NCBI GenBank assembly: GCA_044892505.1
Contig: CM097882.1
Span: forward strand, 514,477,449 to 514,540,000
Reading direction: 5' to 3'
Source: Schmidtea nova
Taxonomy: Eukaryota
DNA: 62,552 nucleotides
Below, piece after piece: positions 19,132-62,552 of the stretch. The notes under the pieces are model-generated. The model searched no databases. It was not told the DNA's origin and worked only from the letters and a program-made list of their open reading frames with translations. The position numbers were made by a program, and so were the translations under genes. How positions within the stretch are numbered: the stretch's first letter is position 1; every line of letters begins with the position of its first letter.

Positions 19132-20074
19132 TCATAAAGAAATTTCAGCACAAATTCGAATAAAGCTATATTCATTTTCAAAAAAAGCAATTCAAAACAA
19201 AAATCAGTTTTTTCCAAGTGAATCGATAAAACAACTCCAAACTCAATAAATCCCTAATAAATCGCAAAACAATTTGGGCCCTCCTCTCAAAATTTTCCTT
19301 TGTTTTGATTGGCTACAAACGCGGTATGACATCATTTTCTTTGTTGTGGAGTCCACACTTCCTCCTACTCAATAAAACTCCAAACATAACGGCACTCAAA
19401 ATTATTCTCCAGAGAATTCAGTCAAGAGAAGTTCGAGTTGATAAGTCAAAAAAATAAATTTTGCGAACATTCTAACTACTTCCGAAATATTTCCAACATT
19501 GCTTAGGCGTCAAGTGGTGAGCAAGGTTATATGGCAATTGATGGGTCGTCGAGCCTAAGAATGACGATAGCAATCCGTCGTTCGGTCAGTTTTAATAATT
19601 TTGCAATGTTTAATGATTGTTCATGACAACTGCTTTTATTATACAAGCTTGATGCACCTGCTCCAATTTAATGTTAACTGATGCAAAATATGTGTCTGAT
19701 CAAATATTCGGTAACCTTTTAAACAAAACTACATAAATTTCTAAATATAACTGCAATATGATAAAACTATGAACACAATATGATAAAGAAAATCAAATTC
19801 CTAAAATTTTATCATCTTTTACTAAAATAATTTTTAAAGAAATAAACAAAAAATTAATTCGCATTTATTAAATTATAATATCAAATTATTTTATTTACAA
19901 ATTCATTTCAAAACTAAAAGACAATTAAATAAAGAAAAGATTTAATTATTTTCACTATTTATTAATTATAAATGTATAATTCCACAATTTTGTTTTAAAA
20001 TATAAAAATATTTTATTATAATTCGTAACATTTTTAAAAGTCTATAATTTTTTTTCATTTAAAATTGAAAAAGA

Positions 20075-21472
20075 ATGAAAAATTATTTCCACATGATAGA
20101 CATATTGAAAAAATATACTTTCAAATTCGAGTCGTCAATATCATTGGATATTAGTTGCGTGGTTTGTAAAGATTTGTTGAAAGATGCTTGCCAAGGTCCT
20201 TGTGGATGTTTGTACTGTTTGCAATGCATTGAGAACTACCTCGAGGATAATAAAAAGTGCTGTCCTGGAAATACCCCATATTGTACGGGAGATGAAATAA
20301 TATTCGGAGTGAATATCAACAGAGATAATAGTGCCAATAGGAAAATAGGAAAATTGAAGGTGAAATGTCCACTAGATTCATGTGAATTCCGTAGTGAATT
20401 AAGAGAAATGTCTGATCATTTGAAAATGTGTGGTAAAACTGAGCTTTGTTGTCCTTACAGAGAATTCGGTTGCAGCATTACTGCAATAGGAAACACAGAA
20501 TTGTTGGAACATGTCCAACAGAGTTCCCTTTGTCACAACAAAATGATAATTAACTGGATGATGAACATGAGAATTGAAATGATGGCACAAAAACGATTGG
20601 AAGTTCTTGAAATGAGAGTTTCTCGAATCCTGATAGACGTTACTCATGCAAACGAAAAGAAACAAGTAAATAATTGTAATCCCAATATAATAAGTTGACC
20701 CCTTCTTCCTCTTTCTCTTTATCAGTCGCTTATCGATCAATTGCGGGAACAACTAAAATCCGTCAGAAACGATAATAAAGATCTCAACAAACTGCTTTCA
20801 CAAATGCAAGGGGAAATTTTCCAATTGAAACATTCGATTTCCCAACAATCCGAATTGAACGATTCGACTTGCCGACTATTGAAATCGGAATTGGAATTGT
20901 TAAAATCAAAAATTTCAACAACCAATCAAATTGCGAGACCAAGCGATATGAAATTCGATATCCCAATCAAACTGTTGCCTGTGAAAACCGAGAAATGTTT
21001 GGATCTGGCACCGCCAGGGGATCTCGATAATGCAGTAGCGACACTTGAATGGGTGATTAATGATCTCGGCCGGTTGCGTGCAAATCGGGAAAATCTATGC
21101 AGTGATTGGTTCAATTCTGCGTTATTCGATTACAAAATGCTGCTCTGTTTGAATCCCGATGCAATCCGTGGCCAATCGGCGATGCAGATCACGTTCAATG
21201 TTTGCGATTTCAATGCCGCATCTGGTCGAGCGCTCTGGCCATTTTCTGCCCATGTCAAGCTGGCAATTTGCAGCCAATCACAGTCGGGAGCACCTTGTCA
21301 ACGGATCGATCGACACGTCAACGCAGACAACCCAATTGCAACATTGACAGTTGATCCGTTATGCAAATTTGATTTCCTTTATTCAGATTTGCAATCGATT
21401 GGCATAGATATTTCCCAGCCGATTCTCATTCGATGTGCCGTTGACAGCTTTAATTGTCAGCTTAAGCATTGA
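20075..21472 (+). CDS. TRAF: TRAF-like protein (RING, TRAF zinc fingers, coiled coil, divergent MATH); exons 20075-20665 and 20726-21472, about 445 aa
   Basis: RING CVVC..PCGCLYCLQC..CP; KVKCP..DHLKMC; CPYREFGC; MATH-like TLEWVI..DYKMLLCLNPD..WPF. A 60-nt GT-AG intron (20666-20725) joins the two ORFs in phase 0. Confidence 0.88.
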
Positions 21473-39735: not shown

Positions 39736-42700
39736 AATCACTAATATTGTGTGTCCACCTCTTGCCCATATCACTGTACTCGATCAGGCAACGATCCCAC
39801 AAGTTTCCAGAATGTCTCAGCTTGTGAAGTATCCTTCAGCCAAACATCTACAATGAAGCATTGATATATCTCATGGACTACTTAGACAAGGGGCCTCCTA
39901 TTGAATAAACACAAATCAACTTAATAAAACAATTTCATGGCCTGTGGTATCATTCACTGCTGTAGCACATCCACTGTGCAGAATTCATAGCCTTTTCAAC
40001 AAAATAGAGACGATTGGCGCCTTTTGAACATATCATGACCTTTGAGGGAAATTTTACGGTGGCCTTTTTGATTTATATTATACTAAACGCTATTCCTTAT
40101 TTTAGGGCCACTCGACAATGTTGGGATTTTTCATCTAAATTCAAACAAGGACTGTTTGAGGCTTTTCACGTATCTCTACAAGATTTGGTAAGCCACAACA
40201 TTAAATAAAAGCTTTTAAATAGCTTGAATGCTAATAATTTATAAGTGTAAGTTATGATAATATATACTAGAGAGGTGTCACTATTTACCATTACGTAATT
40301 ACTGAATATGACAATCCAGCTGACACTAATTTTATAAAGTCTAGGAACGATTAGAAGGAACATTAATTCATTGGACTTTTTCTACTAAGTATTTTACTGT
40401 GGAATAAATGAAATGGCAATAAGTTCTGTTGTCAGTAACTTTATCCCATTGACTTCTTTCTTGGATTCTTATATTATTAGGTCCAACTGGAGTCTCTCCG
40501 CGCGTCGTCATTTGAAACTCCAAACATTGGATCAGTTTAATTTTAAACTATTTCACAGTTTATATTGAATGATAATTATGAATGAAAAATTGAATAAAAT
40601 TTCCCAATTGACATCAGAGCACAAATTTACAATGGTCAATGATATTAATGATGTGTAAGGTACATATTTTACTATGACGGATTACATCTCTGTTAATAAG
40701 GAGAAGTCATTTTTTGTTATAATGAGATATTTAAAGATTTGAGTTAGAATAAATTTAAAAATATTGATAATCTCTACCAGCAAATTGTTGTGTGTTTTGT
40801 AGTCATAGGATTATTATAATTGGTAATTATAATCCAGCAATGTTTATAAAGGTGTCCGAAGAAAATAAAATGTTGACATACCAAAGAAAACAGAAGGTAA
40901 ATTTGGAAACTCAAAAGCAAACTTGAAAGATACAAAAAGATTTGAAATTTGAAAAAATAGAATAAAAAAATATTAAAGAAATTTAATAACATATTTGAAG
41001 AAGGATCATTTTACATGCTATTCTCGCAACACGTAGCCGCACGGTATTACATAATTCATAATATAATTTCTATATACAATGTTGTATATAATTATTATCA
41101 TTAAATATAAATATGGCATACTATACAGACTTAGGTATGACTTCTAGCTTGACAAACAGTACATATTTACTTTTCATACACCCCAACCTTTTCAATGACT
41201 CCAATATTGGCCAAAAATATTAAGCTTGACAAAAGAACCAATTAACCTGTAGAGAAATAAACTTAACTATAGAAAAATCGCTCATCACATCTTGTATAGT
41301 ATATATATCTTTCTTGTTTTTATTAAATTTATATCTGTTGATACGTGATACAGATTATATTTATAAATCGGATTGAGTATCTATATTTATATACTTAGAT
41401 TTTTTATATTTATTTTTATTGTGATGTACCCCTTTTAGTGTATCCATAAGTGTATTAGCATATAACAGATTTTTCTATCAATCCATAAATGCCTCTTTTC
41501 TATTTCATTCTTTTGAAGGTTTTACTTATCTCTATGTTATCCTCTTCTCTAAACTATAACATACATCGTCTACCACTTTTAAAATCAACATTATCAGTTT
41601 GCCTTTTAATAAGGTTTTCACCATATTTTCTGTATTAATTTAATTAATTATTGTTTTCTGCCTATTATCTAGTCATATCTCTATGGAAATAATCAAACCC
41701 GCGCGACATTATATACAATTTAATAAAACAACTTAAAATACCTAACTATATAAATAAATATAACTAAGGATTTAAATTTAAATTAACTATATATAAATAC
41801 ATATAAATTAATATTACAATTATTAAATCTGTCTAACATAAACTTTTTAAGTACTTTATTTACGTATTTCTAAAAGATTGAGCACCTTTAGGAGGATTAT
41901 CACATGGTCAAAATAACATTTTATAATCCTTATAAACTAAAAATTTTGTTAATTACTGTAAACCATTAACTAAACCATTACTATTACTTCAATGTTGAAT
42001 ATTTCGTATTCCATCGCAATAGGTCGTCGACCACAAATCTTGATTTGCCGCCATAAGATGCGGATAAGGGAACTCTAGATTTATATTATACCGTTCCCCG
42101 ATCTCAGAAATTTGAATTCATGAGACCCCACAGTTGTTGTAAAGATAAATTAATCATTTCAGAGATTTAATATACTTTCTTCCTGTGATCCTCATAATAT
42201 TCCACCTAATCCGCCTAGGAGCTAATTGCTTGTGACTCTACTGGAGCGTCATTTGTTGTTCCCGCATCAATTGTTGATATAGTATTTGAAATACCTTTGC
42301 AATGCAAAACATCTTGATTATATATGGCTATAAGGTCATTTTAAAGATTATATTTTTATGATATTTGTTGCAGGCTTTTTTCCTTTTCCTTTTTTTGATT
42401 TAATATTTTTTAAATTATGAAATTCAAAATTCAAAATTTTAAAATCAATTCCTATAGTAATAAATTAGCACAATGACAATGAAAAATTTAAAGAAAGATT
42501 GGAAAATTGAATAATCAAAGACAAAGGAAATTGATTAAAAAAAGAAACTGAAAGATAGGAAAACCAAGAAGGAAAATTATACAATATTAAACACTAGAAT
42601 TCAATTATTTTTTAATTTAATTAGTGAGTACTAGTTTTGTTATTTTACTGTTTTTGGAAGACTCTTTCGGGCTCGACAATATCTTAACATACACTCGAAA

Positions 42701-57099: not shown

Positions 57100-57790
57100 T
57101 TTTCTAACTCATTTTGCAATGCTTCTTTTATTAGGCCAATTTTTTTCTACTGAAATATTTTTGATTTAATTGTCTTTTTTTGGGATTTCTTTAAGTTTTT
57201 CAAATTGTAGGTAATCCTCCTCATGACATTGTCGATTTTGGCTTTGTCAGCCTCTGAAATTCTATAACATTTTTAAAATTCCAGCCAATAAAACCTACAT
57301 TTCTCTAGTTTTTCTTTGTAAATCAAGCACTTCAGAACTTTATTGTCCTTTATTAAATGATACTCCATGAAAATTTTGATTTAATTATATATTGAAAATA
57401 ATCTTTACAAATTTGACCTATAATTTTCCGGAAAACTTAACGTTGTTCCTTTAAAAATATCAGAATTGCTATAAAAAATTTTACTAAATTATAAAATGAA
57501 AAATAAATCTTAAAAAATAATTTCTTTCAAAGATTTTGCATTTAAAATTGGTTTTATTTTGAAAATCGATAAAAAATAATTAAATTAAGGAGATACTCCA
57601 ACTTTTTTGTGTGTAAAATTTATTATTGATTTTTATTGATTGATAAAATTTGCAGTTTCTACTATATAATGCCTTTTTTGGTTTACAAATATCTCTACAC
57701 CTTTGTCTACCACATAATAAAAAATGCTATTCATTGTTAGCACATCGATAACACACAGGTGAGTGTTTGCAATTTCTATAGTATAATTTA
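57100..57790 (-). mobile_element. Tc1-like family remnant, copy 4
   Basis: 57640-57790 resembles 33000-33130, and about 57240-57270 resembles the HTH-coding segment of copy 2. Confidence 0.55.
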
Positions 57791-57810
57791 TTTTTATATT
57801 ATAGGAGGAG

Positions 57811-57979
57811 CAGTGCTTCTCAAACAGCGAGCTACAGAACGTTAGAGAGCCTCGAAATTCTCCAAGTATGCTGCAAAATCTTTAAAAGAATTGTGTGTAA
57901 ATGTTAATTGTAGATTGTCAATTCACTTTTCTGTTCGTCATGGCTTCTACCAAAATATAAAAAAGTTAACTAGGAACTG
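57811..57979 (+). mobile_element. Degenerate hAT (Charlie-like) MITE next to the viral insert
   Basis: Starts CAGTGCTTCTCAAAC; right end degenerate; no TSD match. Confidence 0.45.
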
Positions 57980-58290
57980 GGTACCCCCCCCCCCCCACGT
58001 ACCCCCCGTTACCCAAGTGTTATAAAACCCAACCGACTGTTCCAGACTGCCTACGGCAGATTACTCAGATTATTGTTAAACTTTTTATATAGGGTAAGTA
58101 AATAGGATCATTCCCCAAGTAGAGTTAAGTAAATTGGATTACTCTATATAAAAAGGTTATAGCTGAGTTGAGTAAATCAATAATAATTCAATTTAAAATA
58201 TTTATTAATCTTATTCAACTTAACTACAAGCAAGTAAACAGTTAATTATGAAAAATAACAAGGATTAATCAAATTTAGTGTCACAGATTC

Positions 58291-59767
58291 CTATGAAGAT
58301 TCGATTAGGTCGTCCGCAATGTTTACAGGTGATGCTGCTGAAGGATCTGATTGGTTTGGTTCTAGGGAGCTCCTGAACAATCTCGTCGTGTTCTGATAAG
58401 GGTTCTCTATCACCTGAAGAATAATAAGATAAAAATTATATATAATAATATACTTCTAATTCATTTATATAACATTTGTATAGAGGCTCTTTAAAATGAT
58501 GAACGACAATTCGACGATTAATCGCTGCTTGAATTTCAGGCGATATATTGTCAGGAAAGAAGTTATCAAAGGTATTAATGCAGAATATCCGCGGGCAGCA
58601 TTTTGGGATGATTGCAACGCTATATTTAATATTAACACAATTCTCGAATGCCAGATCAATTAGACTCAAAAACTCAGAAGCTGAAAATTTATTGAAATAT
58701 AAGTCGTCAAAGACAACGCCATCTGTCTTGGAAACATCTGATGATATTCGACCTAACATCTGCATGTGCTTTACGTGTACAGGAACTTTGAAGTGGTTTA
58801 GCGCGAAATTGGTCTTGCCGATGCCGCTCGTACCGATAAATATATGACTGCGCATATCATGGACATTAATTGAAGCCCTAGCAAAATGAATAAAATTGGC
58901 ATTCGCAGGCTTTCCATATTCAGAAATCAATGATTCGATAATTACTTTGCGCTTGGTTAGATAATGAAACGGTTCGTGGTCCTTGATAACTTTAAGTGCC
59001 TCGTCAAAAGAAGTTGCATTAAGAGATTGTTTAAAATGATTATCATAATATTTCTTACCCTGTTCGCCATAACATATATTGAGGCCTCCTGGAACTCTCG
59101 ACTCCTGTTTTGTGGCGTATTGGTGAACCTCAGATCTCGCAGAAGCTGGATGCCCTTTAACATAGGGAATAAAGAAGGTCGATCTGACAGCGGAGATAGT
59201 GTGATTTCGAACTGTCTCCAGCATACACTGCAGATGGCGGAAATCATTTTCGCCAATTTCCTCCTGGCATACAAAGTACTTAGTAGGCTTAGAGTCACTC
59301 CATATTGCTCTAAGTCTGGCTTCATTTTCTCTAAAGTAGGCCATGCCGATGTTGAAGCTCCAAAGATAATATCGTTTCCGAAAAATGTTATCGTTTGCAT
59401 CGTTGACTCTATTTCCCAAACAGGAAGAAGAGTAGCGATTAATCTCTGCCGCCACTGCGTCAGTCTTCACCTCTCGAAGTCGTTCAAGGTTTTTTCTTGA
59501 ATCATCCATTGAACTAACTTTAGACTGTTGCGGAGCATTATGCATACTGTGCACAGGTGTGGCTGGCATTGAGGAACAAAGCTCGTCTCCCCCAAGAATA
59601 GGTTCTTCACGTGGCCGCTTAGATGATGTATTGGAGGATTGTTCCGCAGTGCGTTTGTGTACGATTCTAGAGTCTTTAATTTTTTGATAAATATATATAT
59701 AAATAATTAAAATTTTACGTTTAGCTCTGCCCAACGAACGTTTGTTTGGCGACTTATCCAAGGACAT
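58291..59767 (-). CDS. rep: CRESS-type Rep (HUH endonuclease + SF3 helicase); unspliced ORF 58436-59767; predicted exons 59767-59719, 59673-58454 and 58413-58291 (463 aa)
   Basis: Motif I LWSFN, motif II RHLQC, motif III QYATK, Walker A GTSGIGKT, Walker B VVFDD, motif C IFCIN, Arg finger INRR. Two AT-rich GT-AG segments of 45 and 40 nt; AATAAA on the minus strand at about 58200. Confidence 0.92.
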
Positions 59768-59922
59768 TCTTCGACCGTGTTGTATTTTTCAACAAGTAAG
59801 GTTATTTTCTTCACCAATAACGAGTGTTGCCCAACTAATAAAATATTAAATTGTTTTAATGCTCGGGTATGATCTTCTATCTTAACTATTGTTGTTGTGG
59901 ATATAACTCCGTCGTCTGACAT
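59467..59922 (-). CDS. Predicted spliced accessory protein overlapping Rep (exons 59922-59719 and 59673-59467, 136 aa)
   Basis: Removing the same 45-nt intron joins the 71-aa ORF in phase 0 to a 68-codon open alternative frame (CQPHLCTVC). Confidence 0.55.
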
Positions 59923-60005
59923 TAATGATAATTATTGCTAAGATGCAATCTATATATATAATAAATTCAAATTCAAATTCAAATTTATAATTCAAATTAA
60001 TTGCT
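59923..60005. promoter_or_regulatory. Putative bidirectional viral promoter
   Basis: Symmetric TATATATATA at 59951-59960, 29 nt from the minus-strand ATG and 45 nt from the plus-strand ATG; AAATTC repeats. Confidence 0.55.
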
Positions 60006-60593
60006 ATGCCTAAATTCAAAGGAGAATTTCATATCCCAAATTATAATTTTTGTGGTCCTGGAACTAGGACAGACATTCGGCTAGATAAAAATAATATTCC
60101 CCATAAATTTTCTGAGCCTATTAATCAAATAGACGAGCAGTGCTTAAAGCATGATATTGTTTACGGTAGTACCAAAGATAGAACCAAAAGATACCATTCA
60201 GATAAAAAACTTATTATGGATATTAGGTACTTACGAAATAAAACCAGAGAAGAAGATGTAGTAGGAAACCTTATAATATTTGTATTCGAATTAAAAAATT
60301 TAGTTGAGTCAAAACTAGGCCTAATTAATAGTAACAAAATTACCCCCGAGGAACGCCAAGCTATGAAAAATTATGTTAATAATTTAGAATATGCTACATC
60401 TCTAACAAAGTTTCTCGGAACTGGGCATGATCTAAAAAAACTAAATGCTAATTGGTATCATGACGCCTTATTGTTTGTATATCGTATATACAGTACCCAT
60501 ATTAGACCTGCTATACACAAAACAGTTATGTCTTTTGAAAATAAATTAAGGACTAATCCGTATCATGCGTTATTAATGAGCAATAATCTCTAA
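60006..60593 (+). CDS. Viral phospholipase A2 domain protein (VP1u-like)
   Basis: Ca-binding loop YNFCGPGT, PINQIDEQC, catalytic KHDIVY and downstream SDKKL. Confidence 0.9.
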   Translation: MPKFKGEFHIPNYNFCGPGTRTDIRLDKNNIPHKFSEPINQIDEQCLKHDIVYGSTKDRTKRYHSDKKLIMDIRYLRNKTREEDVVGNLIIFVFELKNLVESKLGLINSNKITPEERQAMKNYVNNLEYATSLTKFLGTGHDLKKLNANWYHDALLFVYRIYSTHIRPAIHKTVMSFENKLRTNPYHALLMSNNL

Positions 60594-60613
60594 GAAGCGA
60601 CGTATTTAAAGAA

Positions 60614-62552
60614 ATGGGATTGAATTGGAAATTTAATACGCGGGCTATAAACTATGCTTTACGAAATTATGTGAAACCTTCATGGCGTGCTACAAGGCGA
60701 TTTATGCATACTAAAGGAGATGTTCTGGGACAGACCTTTAATGATCTTGTTATGGCTGCAATGGAACACATGAAAGTAGGAAGATATGAGAGTACTAGGG
60801 AATTTATGTTTAAATATAATAAAGACGAACATGCATTTTTTGAAATGGTGAATTCAGATGACTTAATTGATGTATTTAAGATGTCAGAATTATACAGTAA
60901 GATAGACTTACGAGAATTATTTCGATATAATCACCAAGATAGATATACCCTACAATCAAGATATCTAGATGAGCATAAAGAATTAGATATGTTTGCTAAA
61001 GATAAATCAGAAGCATATAATAGATATGGCCATGATATTATTAAACGATGGTTTGATCACTTATCAATACAAGAAGTTGCAAATATTATGAAAATAAAAT
61101 CAAAATACACAGACGAAGAAATTGTAAGTCATCAGTGGTGGAAATATTATAAATATATCCCGAATTTAATAAAAGGAAATGAGTGGTTATATGCTTATTT
61201 TTTTCAACGAAGATATGACTTGCCGTTATATGAACGTTTAAAACAAGCCATCGGAAATACTCTTTATCAGTTAGAAGGTATTCACGGATATCCATTTAAA
61301 GCAAGTATTAATTTTGAACACAACGAACTTCCGAAAGAAGATGAAGATTTAACAGAAGAAAGAGTTAAACGTTCCGCTCCTACAGTTAAACAATATAGAA
61401 CGACGGAACAGTTACATGATAAATTTGAAACGTTTTTGCATAAACTAAGACATGAATCTTATACTAATAAAAATAATCATTTTGAAATTGTTCAAAGAGG
61501 AAGAGTATTAAATTACTTGAGGCAATATAATCATCATAAATCGCCTACTCATGCTGCTTGGAGCGCTGCATATACAGCCGAGATGGTAGCCTACGAGGAA
61601 CGCTTATCTAAAATGTATGCTGATAGGACAGATCGTATAGTCGTCGATCATTCGTCAATTGTTAACGACAATCACGACCTATATAATAAGGAAGTTTACA
61701 AATATCAAGGCATTAATACAGTTACAGAAGCTTTGAATGAAATGGCAAATGCAGGAACAACAGGAGCTCCTTCGACTGACCCAGGAACCAGTAGCTCAGG
61801 TGGCGGAGGGGGAATTTTACGAGGAAGTCAAGGAGACCATAGACCGCCTCTCGAGGCAAGTCGACTCACTTTTACCACCACCAACTGCGGGGCCTCGTGC
61901 ATCCAAACTACTGAGATCACGACTGGTATAATATCAATCTCGAGTACCCTTATCCTCATATTGTGGCTTCAAATCCGGACTTTTGGTCGGCGATTAATCG
62001 TTACCTGTGGTGGAAACCGATATCTATGCACTACGAAATCTTTAATATCCAAGTCATTGGTGAAACTAGCGCCAATAATTTCAACGGTTTACAACAACAA
62101 GCGGAATTTTTAGTTTATAAAGATACGAAACAGATATTTGGACCATGTGCTGCTCCTCCTACAGGTGCGAAATCATTTAAGGATATGTGGTTGGGTGAAG
62201 CAACATTACACAATGGATTTAAATTGGATGGCGGACTAGCATTATTAACACCTTGTCCTTTAGAGAAAGCAGGCTGGAATTACATTACAGAGACATGTGC
62301 CGAAGTTGAAATAATAAACTGTAATACTGACAGTAGTTATACATATGATTATGAAGCGAGTAAAAAAAATGCACCAAGATATATAAGAGAATGGCAAGAC
62401 CAAAATATAAATCTAAAAACCCATCCATAAAAAAACGTCGTTCCTTGGTATAGATTTGATTACTTTGGATGTCGAAAAATAAAACCGTTTTATCAAGTAT
62501 TAGGTTCGATTGGGCGAATGTGTTATACAGCTGATAAACGGAAATGTCTGTA
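60614..62552 (+). pseudogene. Parvovirus-like capsid gene with long unique N-terminal region; frameshift at about 61915, in-frame TAA at 62428-62430, continues past the window end
   Basis: MANAGTTG...SSSGGGGG at ATG 61742 (VP2-like start). After the shift, DWYNINLEY..FWSAINRYLWWKPISMHYEIFNIQVIGE..NN matches the parvoviral pattern DWQRLINN.WGFRPK.L.FKLFNIQVKEV. The frame reopens after the TAA (KNVVPWYRF...). Confidence 0.8.

Follow-up and report, generated by a model that had tools for sequence, protein, structure and literature searches.

The right edge of the 62,552-nucleotide (nt) stretch of Schmidtea nova DNA analysed here (GenBank assembly GCA_044892505.1, contig CM097882.1, positions 514,477,449 to 514,540,000; hereafter the window) is occupied by an element that combines a CRESS-type replication protein (Rep) with parvovirus-type genes. 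Positions below are those of the window, and L-numbers (L016, L121 and so on) label genome stretches fetched for comparison. The element extends from 57,970 to the window equivalent of 64,069 (6.1 kb), with its right end at G000:C1:514,541,517; the window holds the left three-quarters of it and is cut inside the capsid gene, and 1.5 kb lies beyond. Four genes are encoded, namely a spliced CRESS-type Rep, an overprinted open reading frame (ORF), a VP1/VP2 gene bearing a phospholipase A2 (PLA2) domain and a separate NS1-type helicase. From left to right between the two repeats, Rep points leftward, VP1/VP2 rightward and the helicase leftward again. Rep and the helicase keep open frames in the window copy; the overprinted ORF is interrupted by a single stop, and VP1/VP2 is disrupted at several positions. 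We consider it probable that the element is an integrated, capsid-broken copy of a likely linear single-stranded DNA (ssDNA) virus of flatworms, of the PEVE/PIVE kind, with a hairpin-primed mechanism of replication. The features of the element are as follows.

57970..58202, plus strand: left terminal inverted repeat; 80.6% match to the right repeat, host repeat as flank
58014..58037, plus strand: conserved repeat box CAAGT..AAACCCA..GA; 15 invariant columns in 22 termini
58047..58059, plus strand: 6-bp stem-loop adjoining the box; compensatory changes
58291..58413, minus strand: last Rep exon (predicted), 40 codons; kept across 10 copies behind an invariant acceptor
58414..58453, minus strand: intron 2 (predicted), 40 nt, GT-AG; conservation among copies
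58454..59673, minus strand: main Rep exon, HUH endonuclease and SF3 helicase of CRESS type, open here; Atlas, IMG/VR, PDB and PEVE matches
58957..59922, minus strand: overprinted ORF of ~300 codons, spliced from exon 1, in the +1 frame over the N-terminal half of Rep; stop counts
59674..59718, minus strand: intron 1 (predicted), 45 nt, GT-AG; conservation among copies
59719..59922, minus strand: exon 1 of the non-structural unit; intron alignment of the copies
59923..60005, no strand: short AT-rich spacer separating the two divergent start codons; sequence and start codons
60006..60296, plus strand: parvovirus-type PLA2 at the VP1 N-terminus (FCGPG loop, HD..Y dyad); PF08398
60297..61741, plus strand: long VP1-unique region, ~480 aa; one continuous frame in other copies
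61742..62552, continuing past the window to L016:6575, plus strand: VP2, parvovirus-type capsid with a Gly-rich start; Atlas, PDB profile and Foldseek
L016:6606-7274, past the window, minus strand: stand-alone NS1/Rep40-type SF3 helicase, ~222 codons, frame open; PF01057 and AAV Rep40
L016:7277-7518: right terminal inverted repeat, ending inside a hairpin arm; repeat alignment and junction position

The AT-rich spacer is likely to act as a bidirectional promoter. A first-pass annotation of the window had placed an endogenous chimeric ssDNA virus at 57980..62552. The left end is corrected to 57,970, and the true unit is 6.1 kb long. Retrieving the downstream sequence, as was advised there for locating the right end, yielded the rest of the capsid gene, the helicase and the right repeat.

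A spliced CRESS-type Rep and an overprinted frame

The minus-strand open frame at 58,436-59,788 contains all of the circovirus/CRESS-style motifs listed in the first-pass annotation: motif I (WSFNI), HLQ, YATK, GTSGIGKT, VFDD and IKY..IP...IFCIN. The best ESM Atlas matches are Reps of Cressdnaviricota (0.97). A profile search found 3,912 relatives and matched solved Rep endonucleases in the PDB (E 5e-6). It should be mentioned that this profile was built with one outside Rep (P0001) and is tilted towards typical CRESS Reps, whereas the Atlas match and the single-sequence ranks of the PEVE comparison below are free of this tilt. A word-indexed protein search returned one Rep relative. Relatives of Rep are encoded on 33 viral contigs of 2.1-6.9 kb in IMG/VR, and the PLA2, capsid or second helicase of the element was matched in none of the 33.

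Two introns, of 45 and 40 nt, are predicted from conservation among the copies; host-sized introns had been mentioned in the first-pass annotation. The GTA donor is invariant in 10 of 10 copies for each intron, and the AG acceptor is found in 9 of 10 copies for the 45-nt intron and in 10 of 10 for the 40-nt intron. The overprinted ORF occupies an NS2-like position and has no family match; in the window copy it carries a premature stop near 59,467. Across 10 copies its frame contains 4 stops over Rep codons 1-150, compared with 86 stops in the same frame over codons 191-340.

A PLA2-bearing VP1 and a probable parvovirus-type capsid

The parvoviral hallmarks previously noticed on the structural side are confirmed by the PLA2 domain (PF08398, E 1.8e-13), the Gly-rich VP2 start from 61,742 onwards and the KPISM..IFNIQV motif that follows it. 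PLA2 is known to aid virus entry. The VP1-unique region is ~580 aa long, and its part at 60297..61741 matches no Pfam family. In other copies PLA2 and capsid lie in one frame of ~1,040 codons, and VP2 is 463 aa long where it is uninterrupted. The VP1-unique region of the window copy has a frameshift near 60,590, and its VP2 is interrupted by another frameshift (near 61,918), a stop codon (near 62,430) and a further break close to the end. Since the frame is continuous in other copies, these breaks are lesions of the window copy.

Recognition of the capsid relied on several signals. Its top ESM Atlas matches are parvoviral VPs of PF00740 (0.96), with recognition below the threshold of the tool, and the Pfam search gave no PF00740 match. 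A capsid profile compared with the PDB matched the VP2 of 9n5m (E 9e-4) on two separate stretches. Structure prediction and fold search, which had been proposed as a check, were applied to the capsid. The two AlphaFold models are of low confidence (pLDDT 25 and 32), although the strand order of the second fits a jelly roll. The PDB matches listed by Foldseek for that model are capsids of adeno-associated virus (AAV) and bocavirus, with E 1e-5 to 1e-4 and TM ~0.25; those from a viral library are mostly parvoviral proteins, with one parvo-like hybrid capsid at rank 47. Because the models are of low confidence, these matches are weak and supporting only. The evidence is consistent with a parvovirus-type capsid, short of proof. 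The word-indexed protein search found no relative of the capsid or of the second helicase, and pattern scans of viral and metagenome contigs for capsid, helicase and PLA2 were empty, with no phage match.

A separate NS1-type helicase

The second helicase matches Parvo_NS1 (PF01057, E 2.5e-13) and AAV Rep40 (E 3e-6). It lacks a nuclease domain, and its start codon is ~170 nt from the box in the terminal repeat. The capsid and helicase genes end only ~30 nt apart with no repeat between them, as measured in L016 and L019. The earlier statement that the motifs are not those of parvoviral NS1 is thus correct for Rep and incorrect for the element as a whole. According to the portions of PMC12713660 available to us, loss of AAV Rep40/52 lowers encapsidation 20-fold, and Rep40/52 rings dock on the five-fold pore.

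Terminal repeats and hairpins

The terminal inverted repeats are ~200 bp long. The conserved box is a candidate binding or nicking site for Rep, and the adjoining stem-loop may be a hairpin of the terminal-resolution type. In the stem-loop, 93% of cells are paired and double changes occur at all 6 pairs; its covariation is 0.58, compared with 0.16 for shuffled sequences and 0.04-0.11 for slid controls, the structure having been chosen from the same sequences that were used in this test. The CRESS nonamer NANTATTAC is absent from both terminal repeats, with two matches inside genes, whereas 18 of the 33 contigs bearing Rep relatives have an origin of this sequence. A motif ~340 nt inside the left repeat falls in the last Rep exon and was discarded as a chance hit.

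Beyond the repeats, two palindromic arms that fold into a T shape (z -6.0 and -7.3) are present in several copies, and the fully extended terminus of L121 folds at -80 kcal/mol. Among 30 termini, both arms are kept in 10, one in 9 and none in 11; in the window copy the left repeat breaks off where the terminal hairpin begins, so that hardly any of the arms is left. The 10 two-arm termini show one arm order in 6 cases and the other in 4, one of these 4 being the L121 hairpin from its other side. Both orders occur at both ends, and L121 has one order at each end. Such flip and flop orders are the known pattern of rolling-hairpin replication.

It is noted that L123:7540-7800 contains a rearranged head-to-head array of terminal repeats that resembles a replicative-form or concatemer junction.

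Integration in the host genome

The element sits inside a 612-Mb chromosome-scale contig, and a host repeat (1,724 candidates) flanks it on the left. A 297-nt contig of public run X2, spanning 57,779-58,059 with allele-like differences, bridges the left junction. Strict bridging was found in one of four public runs, all from one study; runs X3 and X4 have no cover just left of the junction, and such gaps prove nothing. The X2 contig largely refutes the possibility that an assembly chimera or a contaminant was joined to the contig, and the surroundings of the element and the architecture shared by 12 loci also speak against it. The single bridging run and the two runs without cover are what could be said for such an artefact, which we regard as highly improbable. 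The proposal that a chimeric ssDNA virus, with CRESS Rep and parvovirus-type PLA2 and capsid, is integrated here is supported. Among the contigs of these four runs, whose depth can neither show nor exclude an episome, no piece spanning the element and no episomal joint was listed.

The cytochrome oxidase gene COX1 on contig C101 requires AAA to be read as Asn at two conserved sites, indicating mitochondrial code 9, that of flatworms or echinoderms. We take this COX1 to be of flatworm rather than echinoderm type. An innexin gene in the window, described further below, also bears on the host. The host of the virus is likely a flatworm.

A family of copies under purifying selection

The genome search gave 99 matches to Rep, 58 to the helicase and 41 to the capsid; these numbers are lower bounds and count pieces rather than copies. 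Near-complete copies in one gene order are present in 12 of 40 fetched 10-kb stretches, so that the genome contains at least 12 such copies, in unrelated flanks. In a comparison of 253 flank pairs from 23 termini, two pairs match and neither is a shared site: one consists of the AT-microsatellite flanks of a single copy, and the matching part of the other is 80-330 nt out. None of the three two-ended copies tested has a target-site duplication, and a 6-nt word common to both flanks of the window copy was rejected as a duplication, being off the junction.

The median ratios of nonsynonymous to synonymous divergence (dN/dS) among the 12 copies are 0.088 for Rep, 0.070 for the VP1-unique region, 0.073 for VP2 and 0.058 for the helicase, with 21, 21, 64 and 66 of 66 pairs, respectively, usable after saturated dS values were dropped. 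The closest pairs have dS of 0.04-0.10, and no two of the 12 copies are near-identical. All genes, the capsid gene included, have diverged under strong purifying selection. The low dN/dS, together with the closest dS values, indicates that most of the divergence among the copies took place while they were functional strains, and that each entered the genome on its own. The unrelated flanks, the flip and flop hairpins, the missing target-site duplication and the purifying selection lead us to propose that a linear ssDNA virus was captured in the germline repeatedly.

The dozens of loci, their terminal inverted repeats and the many Rep frames that are open could also stem from a self-mobilising transposon of ssDNA-virus origin, in which Rep would cut and re-insert copies with the capsid as a passenger; PIVE-type elements are indeed called transposons by Liu et al. 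2011 (PMC3198968), as far as the accessible part of that paper goes. The ends, however, break at variable places in the hairpin, with 11 of 30 termini having no arm, and the absence of junction duplications, the lack of any near-identical pair and a capsid as constrained as the other genes do not fit self-mobilisation. We consider such a transposon unlikely, and favour repeated capture of a virus.

Further pieces of the family were observed in the window and elsewhere. An old remnant of the same capsid family lies at 41866-42153 on the minus strand (46% identity over 107 aa). A second, partial copy begins 530 nt downstream of the element (L016:8047-10000 and L017:1-1333); it is 81% identical to the element in the 5' part and 94% in the capsid, and ends at a hAT transposase ORF (PF05699). 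A third remnant, in L018, consists of Rep between two terminal repeats. In L028, L106, L115 and L017, copies lie in repeat-rich DNA beside or inside ORFs that, by eye, resemble Polinton genes for protein-primed polymerases.

Recombination and the form of the genome

The median dS of the helicase is 0.45, compared with 1.2 for VP2 over most of the same copy pairs, and the right repeat of the window copy is 96% like the left repeat of another copy but ~81% like its own left repeat. The drop in dS at the helicase end and this repeat likeness indicate recombination among strains. They also speak for a free form that is bipartite like PEVE, with a large segment for Rep and capsid and a small one for the helicase, or that pairs a CRESS virus with a satellite of parvoviral kind, the single unit being a joined or reassorting form; the lower dS suggests that the helicase end is exchanged more often. 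PEVE records comprise a large and a small segment, and a divergent family with the helicase next to Rep also favours a bipartite form. Still, the gene order is fixed in 12 copies, no repeat separates the closely spaced capsid and helicase genes in L016 and L019, and recombination of a one-piece genome yields the same gradient of dS. A bipartite form is thus improbable in our view, a little more so than the transposon, and a one-piece linear genome is preferred.

The divergent family mentioned above (L105-L112, for example L106:1419-5632) has Rep pieces at 28-60% and helicases at 55-65% identity, and the gene on which its helicase converges is Rep, not the capsid gene. Two-arm hairpins, mostly with the same apex, persist at its termini (L105) and at those of the capsid-bearing L115 and L117. 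A fusion of Rep and helicase across a circle junction was considered and dropped, as it is not needed and is impossible in a family where the two genes converge.

Relationship to PEVE and PIVE

PEVE is reportedly described in the Rebrikov papers as having two helicases and inverted repeats. The PEVE Rep, which among the named Rep relatives is the only one from a hybrid associated with animals, shares 31% identity with the element Rep over 272 aa (E 4e-40), and from the side of PEVE the element Rep ranks 6th of 173 rows, counting PEVE itself. A Rep phylogeny, proposed as a check in the first-pass annotation, placed the Reps of this genome, in a careful 28-row tree, in one clade (100/99) within a broad, CRESS-containing group of 21 rows (100/100). 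Their nearest neighbours are P0002, P0003, P0004 and P0012 (88/97), and the PEVE Rep falls in the same broad group. A quick 71-row tree put the PEVE Rep and the element Reps together in an 18-row group (95), with a warning of long-branch attraction. The four nearest Reps lie on public-run contigs of 2.1-4.3 kb and, at 33-40% identity, are nearer than PEVE; possibly they belong to free relatives in other hosts.

PIVE is integrated in Schmidtea mediterranea, has inverted repeats and has been in Repbase since 2008 (PMC3198968, accessible part). In Fig. S7 of that paper, so far as accessible, PIVE_3p is listed with the Rep of the PEVE large segment, apart from parvoviral NS1, and PIVE_1p with the PEVE small segment, clustering near parvoviral NS1. 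Like the element, PEVE and PIVE thus have a circo/gemini-type Rep, a second helicase near parvoviral NS1, inverted repeats and a likely flatworm host, and PIVE also has many integrated copies; in this comparison the Rep was compared with PEVE by sequence, and PIVE and the PEVE small-segment helicase by published description. In contrast, the accessible parts of the PEVE and PIVE descriptions mention neither T-shaped flip and flop hairpins nor an overprinted ORF, a capsid of parvoviral type or introns, features found or, for the introns, predicted in the element. In the literature searched, mainly freely accessible papers, we found neither hairpins nor a capsid nor selection described for PEVE or PIVE, and three further sources (10.1101/551184, PMC6186406 and PMC9241645) only cite PEVE in their accessible parts. 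The element is most likely a further member of this neglected kind, with PIVE compared by description only. The suggestion of an undescribed lineage is therefore correct only in part: the kind itself had been noticed before, as PEVE and, in Repbase, as PIVE, but its hairpins, capsid and selection are not covered in the papers accessible to us.

Proposed mechanism and implications

In the mechanism that we propose, a host polymerase would prime from the terminal hairpin, giving rolling-hairpin replication, and the CRESS Rep would nick the conserved box or the stem-loop inside the repeat and resolve the ends into flip and flop forms. The nuclease-less NS1-type helicase, with a promoter in the repeat, would likely be a DNA-loading motor for the parvovirus-type capsid, like AAV Rep40/52, and PLA2 would likely serve endosomal escape. 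Integration would likely happen by accident, when host end-joining in stem or germ cells captures hairpin ends that have opened, with no encoded transposition.

Several points weigh against this interpretation. The virus is known here from integrated copies, and the roles of its two helicases are assigned by analogy only. Saturation of dS leaves few usable pairs for Rep and the VP1-unique region, and the capsid models behind the Foldseek matches are of low confidence. A sister position of the PEVE Rep to the element Reps is unsupported in the careful tree, whose broad group includes Reps from small circular CRESS viruses as well. Finally, PEVE is recorded as two segments and no integrated PEVE was found, whereas the element has all genes in one unit.

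A broader view, which we put forward tentatively and at somewhat less than even chances, is that the copies represent an unclassified, family-level lineage of flatworm ssDNA viruses, whose activity was recent enough for many strain-distinct copies to remain in the germline. In this view the two functions of parvoviral NS1 are divided between genes of two different virus phyla: a CRESS Rep may resolve T-shaped hairpins like those of AAV, and an NS1 helicase without a nuclease may be a dedicated packaging motor for a parvoviral capsid. If true, this lineage would naturally link Cressdnaviricota with Cossaviricota, in an animal group amenable to laboratory work. PEVE and PIVE were first noticed some two decades ago and have since received hardly any attention, being rarely named in the literature searched. 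The independent copies in one genome now allow the architecture to be read, including the hairpin isomers, the covarying stem-loop, the spliced and overprinted genes, the capsid and the helicase. Two questions become testable: whether a CRESS Rep can run parvovirus-style rolling-hairpin replication, and whether a stand-alone SF3 helicase can be a dedicated packaging motor, an open question for the small AAV Reps.

Other genes in the window

Two intronless reading frames on the plus strand lie further to the left in the window. An innexin at 6107-7831 (PF00876, E 2.9e-44) has a ~185-aa C-terminal extension without a Pfam match, which by eye resembles a Ulp1/C48 protease with altered catalytic positions. 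A TRAF-like frame at 20069-21472, split by one stop, has weak Pfam matches to RING, zf-TRAF and MATH.

Comparison with other known systems

The first-pass annotation had named the parvo-like hybrid viruses (PHV/NIH-CQV; described in the accessible part of PMC4419787) as the precedent for this combination and had suggested that the integrated copy may provide a host. Neither that precedent nor a host for PHV is supported. PHV/NIH-CQV now belong to Oomyviridae (Lineavirales), with likely stramenopile hosts, according to the available portions of PMC12451638 and PMC13426907. Like the element, Oomyviridae combine linear ssDNA, a CRESS Rep and a PLA2-bearing capsid (PMC13426907, in the part available), and one parvo-like hybrid capsid appeared in the fold search, as noted above. 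An endogenous member of Oomyviridae could be proposed on these grounds. The element, however, is integrated at many loci of an animal genome and has a separate NS1-type helicase, which the accessible parts of PMC12451638 and PMC13426907 do not mention for Oomyviridae. Moreover, none of 30 Rep relatives looked up by name is a parvo-like hybrid virus, 27 being nameless and the others PEVE, a CRESS-DNA virus and a hypothetical protein. We therefore judge membership in Oomyviridae very unlikely. Hybrids of a CRESS Rep and a parvoviral capsid would then have arisen in animals apart from Oomyviridae, or are at least not confined to that family.

Compared with DNA transposons that have terminal inverted repeats, which show fixed ends, a target-site duplication and a transposase, the element is ragged-ended and without duplication, and the Pfam search found no transposase among its ORFs. 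Small circular CRESS viruses (Cressdnaviricota) share its Rep motifs and include its nearest environmental Rep relatives. Their genomes are circular with a nonanucleotide stem-loop origin, whereas the element appears linear, with hairpin ends and no nonamer in its repeats.

Densoviruses and AAV are known for T-shaped hairpins in two isomers, a ~6-kb ambisense genome, an overprinted non-structural ORF and a PLA2-bearing VP1. The capsid of Parvoviridae is a T=1 shell of single jelly-roll proteins. The element resembles Parvoviridae in its NS1-type SF3 helicase, PLA2-bearing VP1, Gly-rich VP2 start and probably parvovirus-like capsid, in its size, ambisense layout and overprinted ORF, and in T-shaped terminal hairpins of two isomers, those of the element being deduced from integrated copies. 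It differs in the length of its VP1-unique region and in its initiator, a CRESS Rep in place of an NS1 that joins HUH and helicase domains in one protein. AAV Rep40/52, moreover, are made from the rep gene, whereas the NS1-type helicase of the element has a gene of its own without a nuclease. Judged by its sequence, the element is neither a parvovirus by the NS1 test nor a circular CRESS virus, and its closest precedent is the PEVE/PIVE planarian element rather than PHV/NIH-CQV.

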